Source: a virus
Taxonomy: Duplodnaviria > Heunggongvirae > Uroviricota > Caudoviricetes
DNA length: 8,788 nucleotides
Strand: one strand, 5' to 3'
IMG/VR virus record: IMGVR_UViG_2698536657_000019
The notes below the pieces were generated by a model that saw only the letters and a program-made list of their open reading frames with translations, ran no database searches and was not told the origin of the DNA. This document shows positions 1 through 8,788 of the stretch, in pieces. Position 1 is the stretch's first letter, and the number at the start of each line of letters is the position of its first letter. A program made the position numbers and the translations under genes.

Positions 1-297
1 GGCTTCAGATACCAGTGTTGGCGGATTTTCGTGTTTGTGCCGCGCCAGTTTTTCCAGCCTGATCCGACGCTCTTCGTCGTGGTAAAGATGCGAATTAATT
101 CGCTTCCCTTCGTCTGTGGTTGTCAGGAAGGCGACGGTTTCTTCATCCAGTCTGGCGTCAGTGCGAATATCCTCGTTGATGTAGCTCTGAATGGCCTGGC
201 GTAATGCGGTTGGCTGCGCTCTGCCGAACGTTTCAGGATCGATAACCGGTAGCGGGGCGTTCCACGGGTACGCCAGTTGTGCATTATGGTCGCTCAT
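1..297 (-). CDS. hypothetical protein, partial (start at 297, continues past the window start)
   Basis: ATG at 297..295 overlaps the TGA stop of the upstream gene (ATGA). The frame stays open for 99 codons to position 1. Not in the ORF track because no stop lies in the window. No recognisable motif. Confidence 0.45.
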   Translation of the reverse strand, partial: MSDHNAQLAYPWNAPLPVIDPETFGRAQPTALRQAIQSYINEDIRTDARLDEETVAFLTTTDEGKRINSHLYHDEERRIRLEKLARHKHENPPTLVSEA

Positions 298-710
298 GCG
301 TCGCACTCCCCGGCAGTCGCCGCCTGAAACGCCGCGCGGTACAGCACGAGAAGGCGCTGGTATTCACCGATAAAGTCTTCTGCGGTGTATATGCCTTTCA
401 TGGCCACGCTGTGCGTTGTCATTTCCAGAACAAGCGTCATCTCTGACGACGACCAGCTGATGGCGGTGCTGTCGGTTCCGTTGATGTGAAATAAACCAAA
501 ACCATCACCATCACCTTTCACGTCCACGCGGTAACGGTCGTCAACGGTGAAGGAGAAATCCCCGTATGTGGTGACGCGTCTGGCGGCCCGTTTACAGGCG
601 CGGCGGTAATAGTCGTGCCAGTCGTTCAGGCGGGAAGCCAGCCGGGGATCCACTGCCCACATCCAGTTAAAAAAATCCTGAATATCTGAAAGTCCCTTAA
701 CGTTCTTCAT
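294..710 (-). CDS. hypothetical protein, 138 aa
   Basis: ORF with SD GGAGG about 5 nt upstream of ATG 710. Its stop overlaps the next start (ATGA at 294..297). No recognisable motif. Confidence 0.6.
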   Translation of the reverse strand: MKNVKGLSDIQDFFNWMWAVDPRLASRLNDWHDYYRRACKRAARRVTTYGDFSFTVDDRYRVDVKGDGDGFGLFHINGTDSTAISWSSSEMTLVLEMTTHSVAMKGIYTAEDFIGEYQRLLVLYRAAFQAATAGECDA

Positions 711-778: not shown

Positions 779-1006
779 TTAGTGGTGGTGTTGCTGGTTG
801 ATAAGGTCCTGCAGTTCTGCCAGGTCTTCGGCCAGATAGCTGAAGACTGCCGCGTAATACCCGGCAGCGATACCGTCGTTAAGTCGGTGTAATACGTTTG
901 ACTGCATGATGAAGGAGACAGATGCAGCCCGATGGAGTCTGCGGTTGATTTCAGTGCGGATGTGAAGACGCTCAGCGCGGGCGCGCTGTTGTTTGCGGTT
1001 TGCCAT
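779..1006 (-). CDS. hypothetical small protein, 75 aa, Arg-rich N-terminus and acidic C-terminus
   Basis: ORF with GAGG about 8 nt upstream of ATG 1006. First gene after the minus-strand terminator at about 1190. Confidence 0.5.
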   Translation of the reverse strand: MANRKQQRARAERLHIRTEINRRLHRAASVSFIMQSNVLHRLNDGIAAGYYAAVFSYLAEDLAELQDLINQQHHH

Positions 1007-1180
1007 GGTGTGGCCTCGTACGTAGTAAGTTCTGAAAACTCACCAACCCGAGGTTCCAAGCTCAGGGTGGCGAGACGTACAGGGTTGGAACTACCGGCTA
1101 CGCACGAACCCGGCCCGACCGAAGTCGGCCCCGTACGCCCCGCCATAATTCTGACGTGAAAAAGACGTGGCGATACAGTA

Positions 1181-1211
1181 CGCACAAAAAAACCGCTGGC
1201 GCGGTTGTGCG
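1181..1211 (-). terminator. candidate rho-independent terminator on the minus strand
   Basis: Minus strand reads AACCGC-GCCA-GCGGTT followed by a run of 7 T (plus strand A7 at 1186..1192). Flanking CGCAC/GTGCG extends the palindrome. The stem is short. Confidence 0.4.
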
Positions 1212-1389
1212 CGTGCATAGTCGGCGGGGTTCCAATCCCGGCACCTGTTTTATGAGGTGCGGGAAAACTGTAACCCGACCAGGCGAACGCTGGCAAGCGG
1301 TTTTTGTGTTGCGTGCTGATGTGGTTAGAATGTGGCGAATTAATATCACCTGGCAACTGGTGATTGTCTGCATACGCGGGGTGTTTCTG

Positions 1390-1854
1390 ATGAGTGATAA
1401 GCTCCCTTCTGATTACGACATTCTTTTTGACCTGTGGTACAGCTACTGGCTTGAACGTATTACATGTGTGTTTCACCGACGCGTTTCTGCTGCTCTGCGA
1501 ATCAGCGCCTTTCTGGTTGGTGTTGCGGCGTTTGTCCTGTGTGATTTTGTTGTGTTGGTACTCTTCAGTGTGGTTCTGTTTCTGCTTTGGCAGTGCATGG
1601 CTGCCAGTTTTGAACGCAGGGCTGAAAAGGCTGAATGGCAGGCAGTCAGTTACCAGCGCCTTATCAGTCAGCGCCATGTGATTAGTAAGGAATGCATGAT
1701 TGCGCGCCTCTCCTTTGTTGAGGAAAGTGACAGTCCCATCATGGAGTGCATGATTAATCTTGCCTGGAATAAAGCCTGTGAGGCGGTTGGCAGCTCTTCG
1801 CGCAATCATGTTTCGATCTCCGGTCGGTTACTCAGTCGCCTGTGCGGCTTTTGA
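1390..1854 (+). CDS. putative membrane protein, 154 aa, convergent with the early operon
   Basis: ATG at 1390. Hydrophobic stretch ISAFLVGVAAFVLCDFVVLVLFSVVLFLLW, CTG-dominated Leu codons. Possible promoter TAGAAT at 1326..1331. SD is weak (GGGG 9 nt upstream). Overlaps the 3' end of 1828..2178 by 27 nt. Competes with a minus-strand ORF starting at 1809 that has its own SD. Confidence 0.35.
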   Translation: MSDKLPSDYDILFDLWYSYWLERITCVFHRRVSAALRISAFLVGVAAFVLCDFVVLVLFSVVLFLLWQCMAASFERRAEKAEWQAVSYQRLISQRHVISKECMIARLSFVEESDSPIMECMINLAWNKACEAVGSSSRNHVSISGRLLSRLCGF

Positions 1855-2178
1855 TTTGCCAAGCAGCTGTGCGACAGTTTCGCCGGCCGCCCGATTTTCC
1901 GGGAATGACACCGGCATGTTCAGCTTGAGTGCCATTGCGTACTCAGCCCGTGCGCCAGCGGACTCTTCCCATCCATCCAGTAAGTAAATGGCATCGGCAC
2001 ACATGAGCATCGGAATACAAATGCTCATGTACTGCTGCTGGCTTAATCCGTCAGGCAGTACGGCAGGATTAAGAACAATGTTTCCGGCGTACCTAAGCTT
2101 CAGGTCCGCCAGGCAAAACTCCAGTCTGTTGTCGTCTTTGTATCCGGTCATGGGACCGGCGATATAAATCACGGCCAT
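1828..2178 (-). CDS. probable DUF4406 / nucleoside 2-deoxyribosyltransferase-like protein, 116 aa
   Basis: N-terminal MAVIYIAGPMTG and later LLDGWEES-GA--E resemble the DUF4406 / deoxyribosyltransferase-like family as I remember it. SD GGGAGGT about 6 nt upstream of ATG 2178. Confidence 0.55.
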   Translation of the reverse strand: MAVIYIAGPMTGYKDDNRLEFCLADLKLRYAGNIVLNPAVLPDGLSQQQYMSICIPMLMCADAIYLLDGWEESAGARAEYAMALKLNMPVSFPENRAAGETVAQLLGKSKAAQATE

Positions 2179-2387: not shown

Positions 2388-2620
2388 TGCTGACCCCTTT
2401 GTCCGGCAGATTTCTCGTTGAGCTGCTTTTTAAGGGCGGCGATTTCACTTTCCTGATCCTGAATCACCCGGATTGCTTCCATGGTGATCCCCAGTGAGAT
2501 CGAGGAAGATATAACGACCTTTGGTTTTCCAACGGCAGCCGCAACTTTGGCTGTTTCCTCGTGTGCATGGGCGATGTGACGTAACCCCCGCAAAAGTGCT
2601 TTGTTTCTTTCGCTATTCAT
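2384..2620 (-). CDS. hypothetical protein, 78 aa, coiled-coil-like C-terminus
   Basis: SD AGGAG about 7 nt upstream of ATG 2620. Lies 35 nt after the methylase stop. Confidence 0.55.
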   Translation of the reverse strand: MNSERNKALLRGLRHIAHAHEETAKVAAAVGKPKVVISSSISLGITMEAIRVIQDQESEIAALKKQLNEKSAGQRGQQ

Positions 2621-2655
2621 TTCCTGACTCCTGTGTTACTGATTCATCTGTTTAT

Positions 2656-3636
2656 TCACGTACTGGCAGGGGTAAACATCACGCAGTAAGTTGCATCTCC
2701 CGTTACCGGTCCGCAGTCCGGGCAGTAGCCACCGCCATAGTGACCGCAGGCGTCGCACTGTCTCAGGGTGGCGATAACTTCCGGTGCTGGTTCGCGGGTT
2801 CTTGCGCCAACGCTGCGTGGTGCCTGTATGCAGTTCATCCGGTAACCCTGATAAATGCGTCTGGTTTCCGGTGTGTCGGAATTGGAGATGGTGATGCTGG
2901 TCATGCCGCCCGTTTCCTGCGAAAGGCGGTCAAGTGCTGCCCTCAGGCGAACGTGCTCGTGTTCATCGAATGGTTTTCCGTAGGCGGTGAAATTGTCCCG
3001 GCCACTGAATTGCAGGTAAGGGGGATCGCAGTACACGCAAAGCGTGTTGCCCATGCCGAACAGGTGACTGGCAGAGTTCAGCGTATCCTTAAAATCTGCG
3101 TGGATAAGCAGCGTTCGGGTGCTGTTTGCCTTGTCTGCAAATGCGCGGATTTCATGCTCAGGGAAATAGGGCTTGCGGTAGCAGCCGAAAGGCACGTTAA
3201 AATCGCCTTTTCCGTTCACCCGGTACAGGCCATTAAAACAGTGCCGGTTGAGGTACAAAAACATGGCGGCCAGTCGCAGTTCACGGCGGTCGCTTATTCC
3301 CGTTCTGCTACTCAGGAAGGCATGATTCTCTGCGTTAAAGGTTTCGCGAATGATGAGATAGTCACCCCTGTTGTTGTGGTTCAGGAACAGGGTTTTCGCC
3401 TCGTCGATCAGACTGTCTGTGTTGTCCCGTGCTGCCCGCCAGAAATTAATCAGCGCACCATTGGAATCACCCAGGATGTAGCGTTTGTAACTGGTGTTCA
3501 TGAATACCGATGCGCCACCCACGAACGGTTCAACCAGGCAGTCAGCTTCTGGCAGATGCACCTTCAGTGTGTTCATGATGCGGCTTTTGCCACCCACCCA
3601 TTTCAGCGGTGTGCCGGATAACAGTTCTTTGCTCAT
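2656..3636 (-). CDS. Dam-family N6-adenine DNA methyltransferase with a C-terminal Cys-rich extension, 326 aa
   Basis: Motifs LKWVGGK, CLVEPFVGGASVF (SAM-binding FxGxG), FLYLNR--FNGLYR, FNVPFG-YRKPYFPE, catalytic DPPY (VYCDPPY), NFTAY. These line up with E. coli Dam from memory. C-terminus has CDACGHYGGGYCPDCG (C-x2-C-x7-C-x2-C). SD AGAGG upstream of ATG 3636. Confidence 0.85.
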   Translation of the reverse strand: MSKELLSGTPLKWVGGKSRIMNTLKVHLPEADCLVEPFVGGASVFMNTSYKRYILGDSNGALINFWRAARDNTDSLIDEAKTLFLNHNNRGDYLIIRETFNAENHAFLSSRTGISDRRELRLAAMFLYLNRHCFNGLYRVNGKGDFNVPFGCYRKPYFPEHEIRAFADKANSTRTLLIHADFKDTLNSASHLFGMGNTLCVYCDPPYLQFSGRDNFTAYGKPFDEHEHVRLRAALDRLSQETGGMTSITISNSDTPETRRIYQGYRMNCIQAPRSVGARTREPAPEVIATLRQCDACGHYGGGYCPDCGPVTGDATYCVMFTPAST

Positions 3637-3660
3637 AACGCGGCCTCTTTGTTATAGGTT

Positions 3661-3861
3661 TCATGCGTTAATAAATCCCATGACTTCCCGTTGTTCTTGC
3701 TGAGTAATCGCCAGCGAAAACCGATTCTTATCACCAGGTAGTTGTGGGGCTTTATGCGTGAAAAATTCCGCACACCGTTGCGGAATAAACGCAGCGATGC
3801 GCGGGCTTTTCTTTCCACGTTCAGGGGGGGGGCAGCAACACACATTCAGGATGGCGACCAT
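3661..3861 (-). CDS. hypothetical small protein, 66 aa; frame uncertain because of an internal C9 homopolymer
   Basis: SD GAGGTG 5-6 nt upstream of ATG 3861, directly after the exonuclease stop. Contains a C9 tract (plus strand G9 at 3824..3832) encoding CCCPPP. The overlapping 3633..3845 frame is also open. Confidence 0.45.
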   Translation of the reverse strand: MVAILNVCCCPPPERGKKSPRIAAFIPQRCAEFFTHKAPQLPGDKNRFSLAITQQEQREVMGFINA

Positions 3862-3869
3862 GCTTCACC

Positions 3870-4451
3870 TCATATGTTCAGGAATGGCGTTGTGAAGCGC
3901 TGCCAGATTTCTGACACGACCTTTGCCTGGTAAATGGCATCGCCCAGTGCAGTGTGAGCAATAGCCTCTTTTCCTGATCGGCCTGGCATTCTCCAGCCGG
4001 TTGATTCAGCCATGGCGATAAGCGGACGCATACAGCGCTCGTCCCAGTAACACCACGGAATACTTTTTTCTCCGGTTGTTCGCTTTATGGCGGATCTCAG
4101 GATTGGGAAATCGAAGGATGCGCCCTTGCACCATATGGTCAGTGAATTGCCCGGGCTTTCGTCATGCATATTGCGTGAAATGAACGCCAGAAATTCGGTC
4201 ACTGCTGCCAGCTCTGTTCCCTCTGCGTTGCGCAGGCAGGCCCTGGCCTCCACGGATTGTCCGGCCCACCATACAGCGGTTGTTGCACTGACGGTTCCGC
4301 CGTTGCGTTCTGAATCCACCGGGTCGATGAATTTCTCAAACTGCTTGCCCAGTTTTCCGGTGAACGGGTCGAAAAACACCGCGCCGATCGCGAATATGAC
4401 TGCGTCCGGTCCGTTACCCAGTGTTTCGGTGTCAATCATGAGATGGTTCAT
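3870..4451 (-). CDS. DnaQ-like DEDDh 3'-5' exonuclease, 193 aa
   Basis: Exo I motif MIDTETLG, Exo II region with FDFPIL, Exo III HTALGDAIYQA (H-x4-D). SD AGGAG about 7 nt upstream. ATG 4451 overlaps the upstream stop (ATGA). Confidence 0.8.
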   Translation of the reverse strand: MNHLMIDTETLGNGPDAVIFAIGAVFFDPFTGKLGKQFEKFIDPVDSERNGGTVSATTAVWWAGQSVEARACLRNAEGTELAAVTEFLAFISRNMHDESPGNSLTIWCKGASFDFPILRSAIKRTTGEKSIPWCYWDERCMRPLIAMAESTGWRMPGRSGKEAIAHTALGDAIYQAKVVSEIWQRFTTPFLNI

Positions 4452-4681: not shown

Positions 4682-4895
4682 TTGTTGACTCCTAAAAAAA
4701 AGACAAAGGGAACCCGAAGGCATGAATGCCTTAATTAATTGCTCGTGTGTTTTCTGGTGTTATTGCGTTCTTGTTTGCAGCTTCAGTTTATCCACAGATT
4801 TTCAGGGCTAACCAGGTGAGGTCACACACCATAAATATCACCCATACAGTGGCGATGGTGAGTATTGCTTTTACATTCTTCATAAAGTTTTTGCT

Positions 4896-5639: not shown

Positions 5640-5834
5640 TTACAGTGATTCGTCTCTTGTCAGCCTAAAAATCACTTCAGCCATGACTTCGCTAATTACA
5701 TCGATCCCCTGATCGGTAAGGGCTTCTTTCCAGGCCTTGCTTGCACGTGTTGGATCCATCCTGCCTGATTGCTGTTGTATGATGATGAAGCGTAAATCGC
5801 TGTATAAGTCTTTTGTTTGAGTGGAGTCAGTCAT
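5640..5834 (-). CDS. hypothetical small protein, 64 aa
   Basis: SD GAAGG about 7 nt upstream of ATG 5834. Its start codon shares bases with the ATG of the plus-strand gene at 5833 (CATG), so one of the two starts may be wrong. Confidence 0.45.
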   Translation of the reverse strand: MTDSTQTKDLYSDLRFIIIQQQSGRMDPTRASKAWKEALTDQGIDVISEVMAEVIFRLTRDESL

Positions 5835-6270
5835 GTCAATACCTTCAAATCTTGATGTTTTTAATGAAACAGTTGGTAAAACTTTTGCGTTTCTTTATGA
5901 AACTTTTCCCCGCAAAGTAACTATTGATATTTGTGCCTTAACCGGTGTTTCAGAGCTGACTTTTGAAGAAGACCGATCCTCCAGGAGGCAACTAGTTGAA
6001 GCTCTTGAGCTTCGCCGTGACTCCATCGCATGGCTTGTTGATGCTGGTTATGTATCCGCTAAATCTTCTCCTCCGCATTACTTTTCTGATGCGGTTCTCA
6101 CGGCCAAAGGTCTTGAATTACTTAAGCTTGATCCAGAGTCACTTAAACAATCATTTGGCGACAAGCTTGTTGATGCAGCCAAGAGTGGTTCAATGGATGC
6201 GATAAAAAGCACCGCATCATCCGCTCTTACTACTGGGTTATCCTTTGCTTTCAAAAGTCTTCTTGGTTGA
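5833..6270 (+). CDS. hypothetical protein, 145 aa, AT-rich opposite-strand cargo gene
   Basis: ATG 5833 with SD GAGTGGAG about 6 nt upstream. The ORF-track GTG at 5821 has no SD. Visibly AT-rich, A/T-ending codons, opposite to the early operon. Followed by a perfect 8-bp hairpin. No recognisable catalytic motif; hydrophobic C-terminus SALTTGLSFAFKSLLG. Confidence 0.55.
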   Translation: MSIPSNLDVFNETVGKTFAFLYETFPRKVTIDICALTGVSELTFEEDRSSRRQLVEALELRRDSIAWLVDAGYVSAKSSPPHYFSDAVLTAKGLELLKLDPESLKQSFGDKLVDAAKSGSMDAIKSTASSALTTGLSFAFKSLLG

Positions 6271-6351: not shown

Positions 6352-6777
6352 TTAAGCTGCTTTTTTACTGATACGTTTATTCCGTAAACCAGCTGCTGGC
6401 TTAAATAAAAAAAGTCGGTTTTCCCATTCGTGCCATTCTTGCGGTGCGTTTTCAGTGAGTCGATCGCAGGCTTCATCCCACGCTTTCCGGTTGATGTAGA
6501 GTTCGGCGTTTCCGCCAGGCTTGAGAGGGTCCGCCATGTACACAGCGGGTAATTTCCCTGCTTTTGCCATGCTCACGATGGCGTCAACGGTCTTGCCGAT
6601 ATACATCGCAAACCCTTCTTTTGACAGGAGATGAGAAGGGTTTTGTGAAAGCCTGATTTCCTGGCGTTCAGGGGCTTTGCGCCCGGTCTTTTGGTGTGCG
6701 GTTTCTGGCGCATCTGTCAACTGATCGCACTGTGTTTCGGCAGGCGATTCAGGCGCGTTTTGAGTGACTTCTTGCAT
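6352..6777 (-). CDS. cox: Cox-like excisionase / transcriptional regulator with an N-terminal extension, 141 aa
   Basis: C-terminal half (FAMYIGKTVDAIVSMAKAGKLPAVYMADP...AW) resembles P2 Cox (FAKLIGK...GKLPVIDMTDP...AW) from memory. Start set at ATG 6777 with strong SD GGAGGA about 7 nt upstream. Divergent from the repressor. Confidence 0.75.
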   Translation of the reverse strand: MQEVTQNAPESPAETQCDQLTDAPETAHQKTGRKAPERQEIRLSQNPSHLLSKEGFAMYIGKTVDAIVSMAKAGKLPAVYMADPLKPGGNAELYINRKAWDEACDRLTENAPQEWHEWENRLFLFKPAAGLRNKRISKKAA

Positions 6778-6884
6778 CTGGTATCCTCCGTTATTGGTGC
6801 TATTTCTATTTAGCACCAGTTAGAGCCGCCTAGATTGTCTCTAGGTGTGTTTGTTGATGTATAAACTAAGAGAGTTAACTCACT
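6778..6884. promoter_or_regulatory. immunity switch region between cox and the repressor, with operator-like repeats
   Basis: 107-bp intergenic region between divergent cox and C. Perfect inverted repeat TGGTGCTA-N8-TAGCACCA (6795..6818), CCTAGA-N5-TCTAGG (6829..6845), TAG motifs phased at about 10 bp (6811, 6821, 6831, 6842), and a -10-like TATAAA (6860..6865) upstream of C. Confidence 0.6.
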
Positions 6885-7184
6885 ATGTCAACTAACGTAG
6901 GTGAAAAAATTAGAATCATGCGTAAGTCTGAAATGCTTACACAAGAAAAAATGGCTGAAATTACAGGGCTCACGGTAGCGGCCCTGCGTCAATATGAACA
7001 GGGGAGAAATGAGCCAAATCTTGAATCCACAAAAAAGCTGCTCAAGTCTCCCGTCTTCCGTAAATACCGTGACTGGTTTTTGTTCGATGAGGTCGAACCA
7101 AAGGCCGGGCAGGTGGTACCGGCTCTCGCACACATTGGGCAAAGCGAAGCGGAATCATCCCACTCCGGCAAGAAGACTGGTTAA
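6885..7184 (+). CDS. C: P2 C-type immunity repressor (XRE-like HTH), 99 aa
   Basis: 99 aa, HTH segment LTQEKMAEITGLTVAALRQYEQG, C-terminus APALAHIGQSE...SHSGKKTG resembling P2 C as remembered. Lies immediately upstream of and co-oriented with int. Confidence 0.8.
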   Translation: MSTNVGEKIRIMRKSEMLTQEKMAEITGLTVAALRQYEQGRNEPNLESTKKLLKSPVFRKYRDWFLFDEVEPKAGQVVPALAHIGQSEAESSHSGKKTG

Positions 7185-7250
7185 CGGTCCATCTGGCCTT
7201 TATTTCTCAAAATTGTGATCAAGATGATGTTTTCATTGGGGGGCTTCCTT

Positions 7251-8246
7251 ATGTCGATTAAGAAGCTCGCTGATGGCAAATACTGTGTGGACGTGCGGCC
7301 TGCTGGATCTGAAGGAAGAAGATTTCGGCGGCGATTTCCTACCCGTGGTGAAGCGGCGATGTATGAACGCCATGTTCTGACGCATTATCACGATAAGGAC
7401 TGGGTCGAAAAACCTATTGAACGTAAAGCGTTAAGCGATCTTCTGGAACTGTGGTGGGTGTACCACGGTAAGAATCATCGTTATGGCGCGATGAATCGGG
7501 TCAGAATTGAAGCGGTTCTTCGTGATATGCAAGAGCTTGGTATTAACAGAAGTGACCACTTAACCCGAAAAAATATTATCAGATATCGCCTTGAATTAAT
7601 GAATCGCGGAATTAAGCAGTCAACGGTAAATCGTTATTGTGCAATGATGAGCGGTTTCTTTGAAAAGCTGATTGATGTTGAAGAGTTTGTGGGTGATAAC
7701 CCGTTTCACGAGATACGCAAGCTAACAATTAATCAGCCGGAAATGGCTTATCTTGCACATGATGATATTCCCAGGCTAACCGCACTTTTATCTGGCGATA
7801 ATCTTAAGGCTGTATTGTTAAGCCTGGCTACAGGCGGGCGCTGGGGTGAAGTTGCCAATATTAAAGGTGAACACATAATTGGTGGGAAGGTTATTTTCAT
7901 GGAGACAAAGAATGGATCGCGGCGGGTTATTCCTATAGCTAAAGATCTTGAATCTCTGATTAAAGTCAAAGCGACGGGAAGATTAATGAACCCCAGTTAT
8001 GCGATAGTCAGAAGTGCAATAAGGACTGTGCGGCCTGATTTACCAGTCGGTCAGTCTGTGCATGTTTTACGGCACACATTCGCAACTCATTTCATGATAA
8101 ATGGAGGGAACATTATTACCCTTCAGCGTATTTTAGGGCACAGCACAATTCAGCAGACAATGACCTATGCGCACTTTGCACCTGATTATCTCCAGGACGC
8201 GGTAAGGTTCAATCCGGTTGCGGAGTTGTCCAGATTTTGCCCATAA
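7251..8246 (+). CDS. int: P2-like tyrosine integrase, 331 aa
   Basis: N-terminus MSIKKLADGKYCVDVRPAG parallels P2 Int. Catalytic motifs TGGRWGE, HVLRHTFATHF, LGHSTIQQTMTYAHF (Tyr nucleophile). Start moved from the ORF-track GTG 7215 to ATG 7251. Confidence 0.9.
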   Translation: MSIKKLADGKYCVDVRPAGSEGRRFRRRFPTRGEAAMYERHVLTHYHDKDWVEKPIERKALSDLLELWWVYHGKNHRYGAMNRVRIEAVLRDMQELGINRSDHLTRKNIIRYRLELMNRGIKQSTVNRYCAMMSGFFEKLIDVEEFVGDNPFHEIRKLTINQPEMAYLAHDDIPRLTALLSGDNLKAVLLSLATGGRWGEVANIKGEHIIGGKVIFMETKNGSRRVIPIAKDLESLIKVKATGRLMNPSYAIVRSAIRTVRPDLPVGQSVHVLRHTFATHFMINGGNIITLQRILGHSTIQQTMTYAHFAPDYLQDAVRFNPVAELSRFCP

Positions 8247-8494: not shown

Positions 8495-8536
8495 TAGCAC
8501 CGTGAGTTATACTTTGTATAACTTAAGGAGGTGCAG
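8495..8536 (+). promoter_or_regulatory. chpS promoter/operator region with SD
   Basis: Perfect inverted repeat AGTTATAC-TTT-GTATAACT (8505..8523) overlapping a -10-like TATACT (8508..8513). SD AAGGAGG (8525..8531) 5 nt before ATG 8537. Confidence 0.4.
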
Positions 8537-8788
8537 ATGCGTATTACCATAAAAAGATGGGGGAACAGTGCAGGTATGGTCATTCCCAATATCGTAATGA
8601 AAGAACTTAACTTACAGCCGGGGCAGAGCGTGGAAGCGCAGGTGAGCAACAACCAACTGATTCTGACACCCATCTCCAGGCGCTACTCGCTTGATGAACT
8701 GCTGGCACAGTGTGACATGAACGCCGCGGAACTTAGCGAGCAGGATGTCTGGGGTAAATCCACCCCTGCGGGTGACGAAATATGGTAA
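8537..8788 (+). CDS. chpS: ChpS (ChpBI) antitoxin, MazE/AbrB-fold, 83 aa
   Basis: Translation MRITIKRWGNSAGMVIPNIVMKELNLQPGQ... matches E. coli ChpS as remembered. Its stop overlaps an ATG at 8783 (ATGGTAA) that would begin chpB (MV...), cut off by the window end. Confidence 0.9.
   Translation: MRITIKRWGNSAGMVIPNIVMKELNLQPGQSVEAQVSNNQLILTPISRRYSLDELLAQCDMNAAELSEQDVWGKSTPAGDEIW

Follow-up and report, generated by a model that had tools for sequence, protein, structure and literature searches.

The window analysed here is a stretch of 8,788 nucleotides (nt) from the IMG/VR virus record IMGVR_UViG_2698536657_000019 (Caudoviricetes). The listing of its open reading frames (ORFs), scans against Pfam and PHROG, and BLAST against E. 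coli genomes identify it as the early region of a P2-like E. coli prophage. Our subject is a pair of ORFs on opposite strands. The plus-strand ORF (1390-1854), hereafter the membrane gene, encodes a conserved two-transmembrane hairpin protein of 154 amino acids (aa) and is a genuine protein gene under purifying selection. The minus-strand ORF (697-1809), with 370 codons and in frame with the DUF4406 gene preceding it (1828-2178, minus strand), is not a conserved protein: its amino-acid sequence evolves neutrally, and its frame is kept free of stops through synonymous codon choice in the membrane gene. The comparisons suggest that both frames may matter, for different reasons. Our best explanation of the whole, to which we give a probability of about 0.55, combines a genuine membrane gene, a minus-strand ORF that would act as a translational bridge across it, and a DUF4406 gene that would be a neighbour.

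The membrane gene and the open frame opposite it

The original prediction, made from the letters of the window alone, placed a convergent membrane-protein ORF at 1390-1854, overlapping the 3' end of a DUF4406-like gene by 27 nt, and an alternative minus-strand ORF starting at 1809 behind GGAGA, and left the coding strand undecided. The coordinates of the plus ORF and of the convergent overlap (1828-1854) were confirmed. Within the overlap, the plus-strand codon TTA (1828-1830) is the reverse complement of the DUF4406 stop TAA, and 1 of the 27 positions is variable among 9 related loci. The minus-strand junction was also recovered. It reads TAA (the DUF4406 stop, 1830-1828), ccgacc, GGAGA, tcgaaac and ATG at 1809, with the ATG 18 nt past the stop, and the ORF beyond it stays in the DUF4406 frame for 370 codons, down to 697. 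The question of the coding strand is settled in an unforeseen way by the comparisons below: the plus strand encodes a selected protein, and the minus frame, which is no conserved protein, is kept open as well.

Selection was scored in both frames. We compared nine E. coli-type loci, among which the membrane gene occurs as two main alleles. Variable sites in 1390-1827 are distributed 27/16/48 over the first, second and third positions of the plus-strand codons. Between the window and locus L002, the Nei-Gojobori method (NG86) gives a synonymous divergence (dS) of 0.82, a nonsynonymous divergence (dN) of 0.145 and a dN/dS ratio (omega) of 0.18 for the plus frame, against dS 0.21, dN 0.256 and omega 1.2 (range 1.1-1.2) for the minus frame. 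In a codon alignment of 26 family members, the plus frame is most variable at third positions whatever the divergence bin (differences per codon position of 17/6/90, 102/69/254, 1964/1366/3803 and 6514/4571/10763), and the plus protein is much better conserved than the antisense translation, with mean identities of, for example, 0.84 vs 0.68 and 0.66 vs 0.39. The proportion of synonymous differences (pS) in the membrane gene is similar to that of its neighbours in six genome pairs, and the ratio of nonsynonymous to synonymous proportions (pN/pS) is about 0.1-0.35, overall about 0.2, in the five pairs where the gene was called from its true start. For the minus ORF, pS about equals pN in five genome pairs. 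Third-position variability, omega and pN/pS therefore favour the plus frame and identify 1390-1854 as a genuine gene. The tail of the minus ORF beyond the membrane gene shows no codon-position signature (22/22/28), and the PHROG scan returned no family for the part antisense to the membrane gene, nor for the antisense ORFs of seven other loci.

The openness of the minus frame was examined through codon usage. A stop in the codon-aligned antisense frame arises wherever the sense strand has the codon TTA, CTA or TCA, and these three codons were counted in the first 140 codons of the membrane gene from 15 divergent loci, with the neighbouring called genes as control. TTA and CTA together account for 1/206 Leu codons in the membrane gene vs 241/867 in the neighbours (Fisher 1.8e-24), and TCA for 2/182 Ser codons vs 112/612 (Fisher 1.2e-11); taken together, 3 of the 388 Leu/Ser codons are of these kinds, against 353 of 1479 in the neighbours. 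GTA, GCA, ACA, CCA, GGA, ATA and CGA/AGA do not differ in usage between the membrane gene and the neighbours (p 0.35-1). TTA, CTA and TCA occur freely in three homologues from other contexts, with 7 in 160 codons beside Tn7-like genes, 11 in 146 in a Q-holin context and 10 in 148 in a lambdoid leftward operon. Since the avoidance is lifted in these three contexts, it is tied to the genomic context and not to the protein family as such.

The length of the minus ORF is far beyond chance, and part of it is explained by position, because the ORF lies in the codon-aligned antisense frame of a real gene. It is stop-free in 9/9 E. coli-type loci, and antisense ORFs of 175-250 codons are found over the membrane gene in the Brenneria, Serratia, Yersinia, Fels-2 and lambdoid loci. 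Zero stops are counted in 13 of 16 lineages. In the window, the ORF stops 11 nt past the ATG of orf138, the next gene on its strand. Stop/start overlaps of the form ATGA join the antisense ORF to the upstream gene in L018 and L019, and to the replication gene in L016 and L018. Such junctions are compatible with a translated ORF.

In all the phage loci examined, the membrane gene runs counter to the lytic operon around it, and it lies opposite gpA, Dam, exonuclease, Cox or an O-type replication gene wherever such a marker was recognised. The repressor or integrase is on the strand of the membrane gene in 31/31 loci with either recognised, as are the C repressor and the integrase of the window; those 31 loci represent about 15 lineages, with some contigs fetched twice. 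The counter-orientation holds at four or more distinct operon positions. In Brenneria-type loci the gene is directly upstream of the repressor gene, in Serratia and Yersinia it is found a few genes into the early operon, and in Salmonella Fels-2 it lies between fil and STM2733. The E. coli copies adjoin a C4 RNA module, and in lambdoid prophages the gene separates the cro/cII-like genes from the replication gene, just where lambda has oop. In the Providencia phage PSTNGR2lys, where it is located in a leftward operon, and in the Elizabethkingia phage EKP1, where it is located between Q and holin, it still runs against the lytic operon and the repressor-strand rule is broken.

The GenBank record of Fels-2 (L046, NC_010463) annotates the minus ORF, as STM2733.1 (3414-3959 of the locus), and not the plus gene (3501-3959), which other pipelines call there. 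This annotation conflict mirrors the question of the coding strand. A literature search for STM2734/STM2733.1 found no match.

The putative translational bridge and its alternatives

We suggest that the membrane gene would be an accessory gene with its own promoter, transcribed while the lytic operon is silent, and that its product would act at the membrane of the lysogen. In lytic growth, the minus ORF from 1809 to 697 would serve as a translational bridge across the antisense of this backwards gene. Ribosomes would follow RNA polymerase over the antisense of the accessory gene, the early transcript would thus be spared about 0.5-1.1 kb of untranslated, Rho-exposed sequence, and translation would be handed on to orf138 and gpA downstream. 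Rho is known to target untranslated nascent RNA (PMC5909445, PMC12360218). Because the frame is kept open with no conservation of the product, the simplest interpretation is that it is translation as such that counts. The more general proposal is that of an old and widespread sense/antisense ORF pair of temperate phages, whose open strand would act as a bridge against Rho polarity and keep translation coupled; to this we give somewhat less than even odds.

Several observations weigh against the bridge. The promoter and terminator matches obtained in scans of the window and its relatives are weak. A second backwards gene of the same early operon (5821-6270, phrog_2266) has no full bridge, which indicates that not every backwards gene needs a bridge. 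Translation of the window ORF would be awkward, as it would have to proceed through isrK and C4, which are structured RNAs, and over the derepression gene in a different frame. The antisense ORFs outside the E. coli lineage stop earlier, and in Serratia and Yersinia the ORF ends 115-230 nt short of the next gene, so coupling is not universal. A C>G skew such as that of a Rho loading site was inconsistent on the minus-strand RNA across loci. Dam has a single TTA/CTA/TCA codon in 326 (P=4e-4) and other genes are sometimes low, which makes single-locus P values over-optimistic, and the loci are phylogenetically related, though their synonymous sites are near saturation between lineages. As to the role of the product, the idea of a defence effector draws on weak matches, and the window protein matches no PADLOC model.

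The same evidence could be the outcome of true dual coding, in which the minus ORF would be a functional early protein, probably hydrophilic and disordered and tolerating almost any sequence, and the two genes an ancient overlapping pair. In its favour are the family-wide, context-dependent stop avoidance, a Shine-Dalgarno sequence and start codon that immediately follow the upstream gene, and the annotation of STM2733.1 in the Fels-2 record. A hydrophilic antisense pattern would moreover be conserved automatically, because the middle codon positions are shared. However, pS about equals pN in the minus frame of all five pairs and the plus gene is no lower in synonymous divergence than its neighbours. 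The non-overlapping tail has no codon-position signature, the length and end point of the ORF vary (175 to 370 codons), and seven antisense ORFs have no PHROG family, while the matches of the window ORF are found only over the isrK-C4 RNAs. We consider dual coding unlikely. That the minus ORF is the sole real gene, and the membrane protein an artefact of the antisense of a hydrophilic protein, is scarcely credible: the antisense of hydrophilic NAN codons does give hydrophobic NTN codons and the Fels-2 annotation took the minus ORF, but each comparison made, by codon-position variability or by dN/dS, speaks for the plus frame, the family alignment yields a confident structure model, and the length of the plus ORF is constant (about 150-160 aa) while that of the minus ORF varies. 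The open frame could also be a functionless by-product of antisense-frame openness, of the codon bias of the gene and of shared ancestry. The loci are not fully independent, and long antisense ORFs are found elsewhere, as the one at 2521-3621 (plus strand) against Dam. Such an origin is nonetheless quite improbable, given that the depletion is specific to the three stop-complement codons, with seven other A-ending groups normal, that it recurs in lineages with near-saturated synonymous sites and is lifted in three homologues in other contexts, and that the start/stop junctions abut neighbouring genes in the window, L016, L018 and L019.

Two further alternatives were considered. The gene could act mainly via its transcript, like lambda OOP, through convergent or antisense damping of early lytic expression that would aid lysogeny, with the protein being secondary. 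The lambdoid relatives do have the gene at the oop position, opposite the cro/cII-like and replication genes; its 3' end overlaps the upstream early gene by 27 nt in the window and by 53 nt in Fels-2, and in L016 a strong plus-strand terminator is found inside the 3' end of the upstream gene. On the other hand, the protein is under clear purifying selection in at least 15 lineages and 226 clusters, and several loci have a gap of 30-110 nt in place of the overlap with the upstream gene, so we regard this role as improbable. The likeness to OOP, an RNA covered in PMC7067206, thus consists of the lambdoid position between cII-like and replication genes, the orientation, and a 3' end that converges on and sometimes overlaps the upstream early gene; the difference is that OOP is a 77-nt non-coding RNA and the present gene encodes a 154-aa protein under purifying selection. 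A single module of DUF4406 and membrane protein, that is, a nucleotide sensor or enzyme with a two-transmembrane effector as in SLOG/SMODS-SLATT systems, would agree with the adjacency and overlap of the genes, which hold for the window and for every E. coli P88-like locus, and with the weak matches of some family members to 2TM or SLATT models. The genes are nevertheless convergent and belong to opposite transcription programmes, no DUF4406 gene is found near the membrane gene in the other lineages examined, and the divergence histories differ between the same genomes (dS 0.82 for the membrane gene vs 0.38 for DUF4406). Since the adjacency is limited to the E. coli P88-like lineage, the module is rejected as very improbable, and DUF4406 is an ordinary neighbour of the membrane gene, not a partner.

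Antisense overlapping genes have been found by stop-codon depletion in E. coli O157:H7 and Pseudomonas aeruginosa, and the HIV-1 asp gene is a further case (PMC9927249, PMC8850804, PMC10846101, PMC6188560). The minus ORF resembles them in being long and fully embedded, in the frame whose stops correspond to TTA, CTA and TCA, and in that these codons are missing beyond expectation. Unlike them, it is devoid of purifying selection on amino acids, it abuts or overlaps its neighbours in the window and in three lambdoid loci, and the pattern is present in about 15 divergent phage lineages and gone in other contexts. The lack of product constraint, the recurrence and the context dependence look like selection for translation and not for a product. 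Antisense ORFs with stop depletion are therefore already known, but the combination of features seen here appears to be new: our literature search turned up no description of family-wide, context-dependent and neighbour-abutting stop avoidance together with an unconstrained embedded ORF. To our knowledge, nobody has described an ORF that is maintained solely over the sequence antisense to a backwards gene.

The principle proposed for the bridge, which involves untranslated RNA and Rho, is the same as in the protection from Rho polarity and in the c4-icd-ant immunity of P1 and the CI RNA immunity of P4, and the minus ORF of the window runs into a C4/isrK module of the P1/P4 kind. Both P1 (c4-icd-ant) and P4 (CI RNA) have translation-controlled immunity. 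If the bridge is true, it would explain how a backwards accessory gene can be placed in an essential operon without cutting off the downstream replication genes, and it would provide a clear, testable example of selection for translation as such. It would also imply a general design rule for backwards genes in operons, and ORFs of a kind whose function does not depend on a working product. Where two ORFs overlap, annotation retains one and drops the other, and in this case PGAP (the NCBI Prokaryotic Genome Annotation Pipeline), Prodigal-type callers and the GenBank record of Fels-2 disagree.

The membrane protein, its family and its upstream region

The product of the membrane gene matches phrog_6315 (E=2e-54, residues 6-154 on positions 2-149 of the 152-position profile), as do all 114 aligned relatives, and the PHROGs of the family (6315, 11791 and 23697) are all annotated as unknown function. 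PGAP labels the gene as hypothetical protein in relatives. The first homologue search recovered E. coli proteins alone, and a genome scan then gave a 29%-identical Brenneria gene, with relatives in Pectobacterium, Yersinia, Serratia, Enterobacter and Sodalis. Distant homologues with 27-35% identity are found in Brenneria, Serratia, Yersinia, Salmonella Fels-2, Vibrio and others. The third search, with the 114-sequence profile, added few new sequences and no Pfam-annotated periphery, and a scan of IMG/VR with the Vibrio-type protein gave no match. An exhaustive profile search retrieved 226 cluster representatives at E<=1e-3, almost all of 150-165 aa. The work thus defines a membrane-protein family of about 226 clusters by the lysis-lysogeny switch of P2-like and lambdoid phages.

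As had been predicted, the product is a membrane protein. It has one long hydrophobic block (residues about 31-75; Kyte-Doolittle 19-residue maximum of 3.02), and the AlphaFold2 (AF2) model obtained from the family alignment, with a mean predicted local distance difference test (pLDDT) score of 86 and a predicted template modelling (pTM) score of 0.79, shows a helical hairpin (residues 8-50 and 54-93) followed by three short helices. The protein is probably located in the inner membrane with both termini cytoplasmic, because basic residues flank the hydrophobic block and the loop between the modelled helices has about 3 residues. The alignment of Enterobacterales members reveals a conserved C-terminal motif, EEFDS...NPARN, predicted to be cytoplasmic. 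Searches of Pfam, NCBIfam and PADLOC gave no significant match, only transmembrane-hairpin noise (ATP-synt_I, HemY_N, Mlo), and none with SieB, Imm, RexB or similar exclusion or abortive-infection families. A profile search against PDB sequences found nothing, and fold searches of the PDB found generic hairpins only.

Some resemblance is seen with SLATT and the two-transmembrane effectors of cyclic-oligonucleotide-based antiphage signalling systems (CBASS) and defence-associated reverse transcriptases (DRT). The AF2 model has the architecture of SLATT proteins, that is, about 150 aa with an N-terminal helix running into a transmembrane hairpin of two helices, and cytoplasmic helices. Weak matches to the PADLOC models '2TM effector' or 'RTasSLATT' were found in 8/114 members (best E 7.6e-5), and Foldseek against BFVD gave weak matches (E 0.015-0.4), several of them SLATT proteins. 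Unlike those effectors, the family has no significant match to Pfam SLATT (SLATT_3, E=0.64 in 1/16 members; SLATT_fungal, E=0.005 in 1/114), and it stands alone: in the contexts with Pfam-annotated genes there was no nucleotide cyclase, SLOG, TIR or reverse-transcriptase neighbour. We regard SLATT as a weak resemblance and not as membership.

The position of the family by the lysis-lysogeny switch makes it a reasonable candidate for an exclusion or abortive-infection factor. Our best guess, a tentative one that we would expect to fail more often than to hold, is that the protein may be a prophage-expressed factor that excludes or aborts superinfecting phage, like two-transmembrane defence effectors. 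It is based on the orientation of the gene, its conservation by the lysis-lysogeny switch, and the two-transmembrane hairpin with a conserved C-terminal motif. Prophage morons and accessory loci antisense to lytic genes have been described (PMC7067206), and the membrane gene is similar to them as a single gene against a lytic operon, with a candidate promoter of its own, and on the strand of the repressor in most loci. Unlike morons, which are usually variable cargo, it is conserved and belongs to the early region in both P2-like and lambdoid phages.

The membrane gene had been predicted to have its own promoter. A weak match to the consensus, TTGTGT-16-TAGAAT, is indeed present as a candidate sigma-70 promoter (1304-1331, plus strand), but it was picked out by eye and was missing from the promoter scan at the threshold used. 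The stretch 1290-1400 hardly varies among the 9 loci. More broadly, 1274-1450, which takes in the region of the divergent promoters and codons 1-20 of the membrane gene, has 1 variable site per 50 nt, vs 15-20 per 50 nt in the flanks, and this near-invariance suggests either strong constraint or a recent recombination boundary. Two start codons other than ATG 1390 were considered. The GTG at 1156 was rejected, as 1156-1389 has no codon-position signature (10/16/9) and distant homologues align from ATG 1390. The ATG at 1330, which is the PGAP start in some relatives, falls inside the candidate -10 element, and conservation does not discriminate. A weak terminator-like hairpin of 6 pairs with a T-run (1834-1849, plus strand) lies across the stop of the membrane gene.

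In most relatives, 5-10 nt separate the membrane gene from the end of a small plus-strand ORF of 27-48 aa, which the window and the other E. coli loci lack. This small ORF was located in L010 (2879-2992), L012 (4899-4994), L036 (4896-4979), L046 (3411-3491), L016 (5889-5990), L047 (2847-2993) and L048 (2875-2991). It has a conserved Pro-rich motif (FHVLHKPAPPEE..., RPAPAPKPEP, TPPPPS), with an acidic tail in P2-like phages, and its product could be a leader peptide for stalling or else a small protein partner. Just past the end of the antisense ORF, upstream of the cassette formed by the small ORF and the membrane gene, a GC-rich hairpin (GCGCCGGGC...CCCGGCAC) is found in Yersinia (L015, 4766-4796), Serratia (L011, about 4700-4810) and Fels-2 (L046, about 3330-3370), and the L015 hairpin scores as a plus-strand terminator. 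In the lambdoid loci, a 90-nt block conserved at the DNA level lies upstream of the membrane gene (L016, 5790-5880, and its equivalent in L018). This block has no coding signature and contains repeated TCTATTGGT motifs, which could be operators or iterons.

The RNA module, the DUF4406 gene and the rest of the window

The DUF4406 gene had been taken for the last gene of the main operon, which does not hold: its strand continues with isrK, C4, the derepression protein, orf138 and gpA. The isrK-like RNA (1186-1260, minus strand) matches Rfam RF01394 with 67.1 bits (gathering score 50; E=5e-13). Overlapping it and reaching 1273 is a weaker match, to RF03163, the a1/b1 target of C4 RNA (minus strand, 26.3 bits, below the gathering score). 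The C4 antisense RNA, an immunity RNA of the P1/P7/P4 type (1063-1150, minus strand), matches RF01695 at full length (82.6 bits, gathering score 45; E=1.4e-15). The pair isrK/C4 corresponds to seqA/CI of P4 (PMC3632133). The promoter scan reported a promoter-like site, TTGCCA-18-TACAGT (1267-1296, minus strand), divergent from the membrane gene, from which transcription would begin at about 1260, where the isrK match has its 5' end. Next is the derepression protein gene (779-1006, minus strand; Pfam PF25738 'Derepression', E=8.5e-7, 29.1 bits, cut-off 27), a name also given by PGAP to its counterpart in relatives. An RNA immunity module of the P1/P4 type, with the isrK-like RNA, C4 and the derepression protein, is thus located inside a P2-like early operon, upstream of gpA. 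It is followed by orf138 (294-710, minus strand; phrog_3237), whose start overlaps the end of the bridge ORF, and by the start of the replication endonuclease gene gpA (1-297, minus strand).

Residues 164-286 of the minus ORF (window 1006-1320, minus strand), translated over isrK and C4, match Pfam Phage_ASH (E=0.0011). The translation of isrK-C4 also matches PHROGs annotated as transcriptional regulator or repressor (phrog_995 with 3e-19, 821, 6928 and 3960). These families may be, at least in part, translated RNA genes, or the frame may be open over C4/isrK in many phages.

The assignment of 1828-2178 (minus strand, 116 aa) to DUF4406, a nucleoside 2-deoxyribosyltransferase-like family, agrees with the original prediction. 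The product matches Pfam PF14359 (E=8e-33, 113.2 bits, cut-off 22; residues 3-91 on positions 2-90 of the 91-position profile) and phrog_355 'nucleoside 2-deoxyribosyltransferase' (2.7e-38), and the pN/pS of the gene against relatives is about 0.3. Judging from these profile matches, it is a real early gene and an ordinary member of a known, poorly studied family, which the literature searched names in three papers and in no title or abstract. A sequence search gave no solved relative, and the single-sequence AF2 model was unusable (pLDDT 45). The motif GWEESAGARAEY contains candidate Glu residues for the acidic nucleophile expected in a flavodoxin-like transferase fold. The DUF4406 fold has been tied to nucleotide signalling by established comparative genomics, reportedly that of Burroughs et al. 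2015. The gene adjoins the membrane gene in the E. coli P88-like lineage only and was not found near it in the Brenneria, Serratia, Yersinia, Salmonella Fels-2, Vibrio-type, Providencia or EKP1 loci.

The closest match to the window among E. coli genomes is JNEC-KY203, with 94.6% identity by BLAST. The P88/Xuanwuvirus phages are the nearest named relatives, with a match confined to 1000-1326 of the window. On the plus strand, the C-type repressor (6885-7184, HTH_3) and the integrase (7215-8246) are followed by a MazE-family antitoxin gene (8531-8788, 1.4e-11) past the prophage end on the integrase side, whose sequence we take to be that of E. coli ChpS. The early lytic operon on the minus strand contains a Cox-like regulator (6352-6816) with several small genes after it, a 3'-5' exonuclease (3870-4451) and the Dam methylase (2656-3636), with two small genes between Dam and DUF4406. 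Between Dam and the exonuclease, an ORF with a ParE-like toxin domain (3633-3845, minus strand; Pfam 9.7e-19) has no obvious antitoxin.

The second backwards gene inside the early operon (5821-6270, plus strand) encodes 149 aa and is flanked by the Cox-like gene and the next early gene, in a patch of low GC content (42-45%). It contains 12 TTA/CTA/TCA codons in 149, so its antisense frame is closed, with no full bridge ORF, and minus-strand ORFs at 6476-6078 and 6026-5895 span part of the gap opposite it. The single TTA/CTA/TCA codon in Dam corresponds to an antisense ORF of 366 codons (2521-3621, plus strand). In relatives, Dam has 1 such codon in 288 in Serratia (L011, 3139-4005) and 9 in 274 in Yersinia. 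The low number may reflect codon bias or another maintained antisense frame.

In the Serratia loci L011-L014, the region just past the integrase (about 7760-10260) carries differing defence-like cargo, with Pfam matches to AAA_15/AAA_21, NACHT, Peptidase_U49 and DUF2971. From its gene content, it looks like a variable hotspot. At the opposite end from this integrase-side cargo, L012 has an SduA_C gene past gpA.

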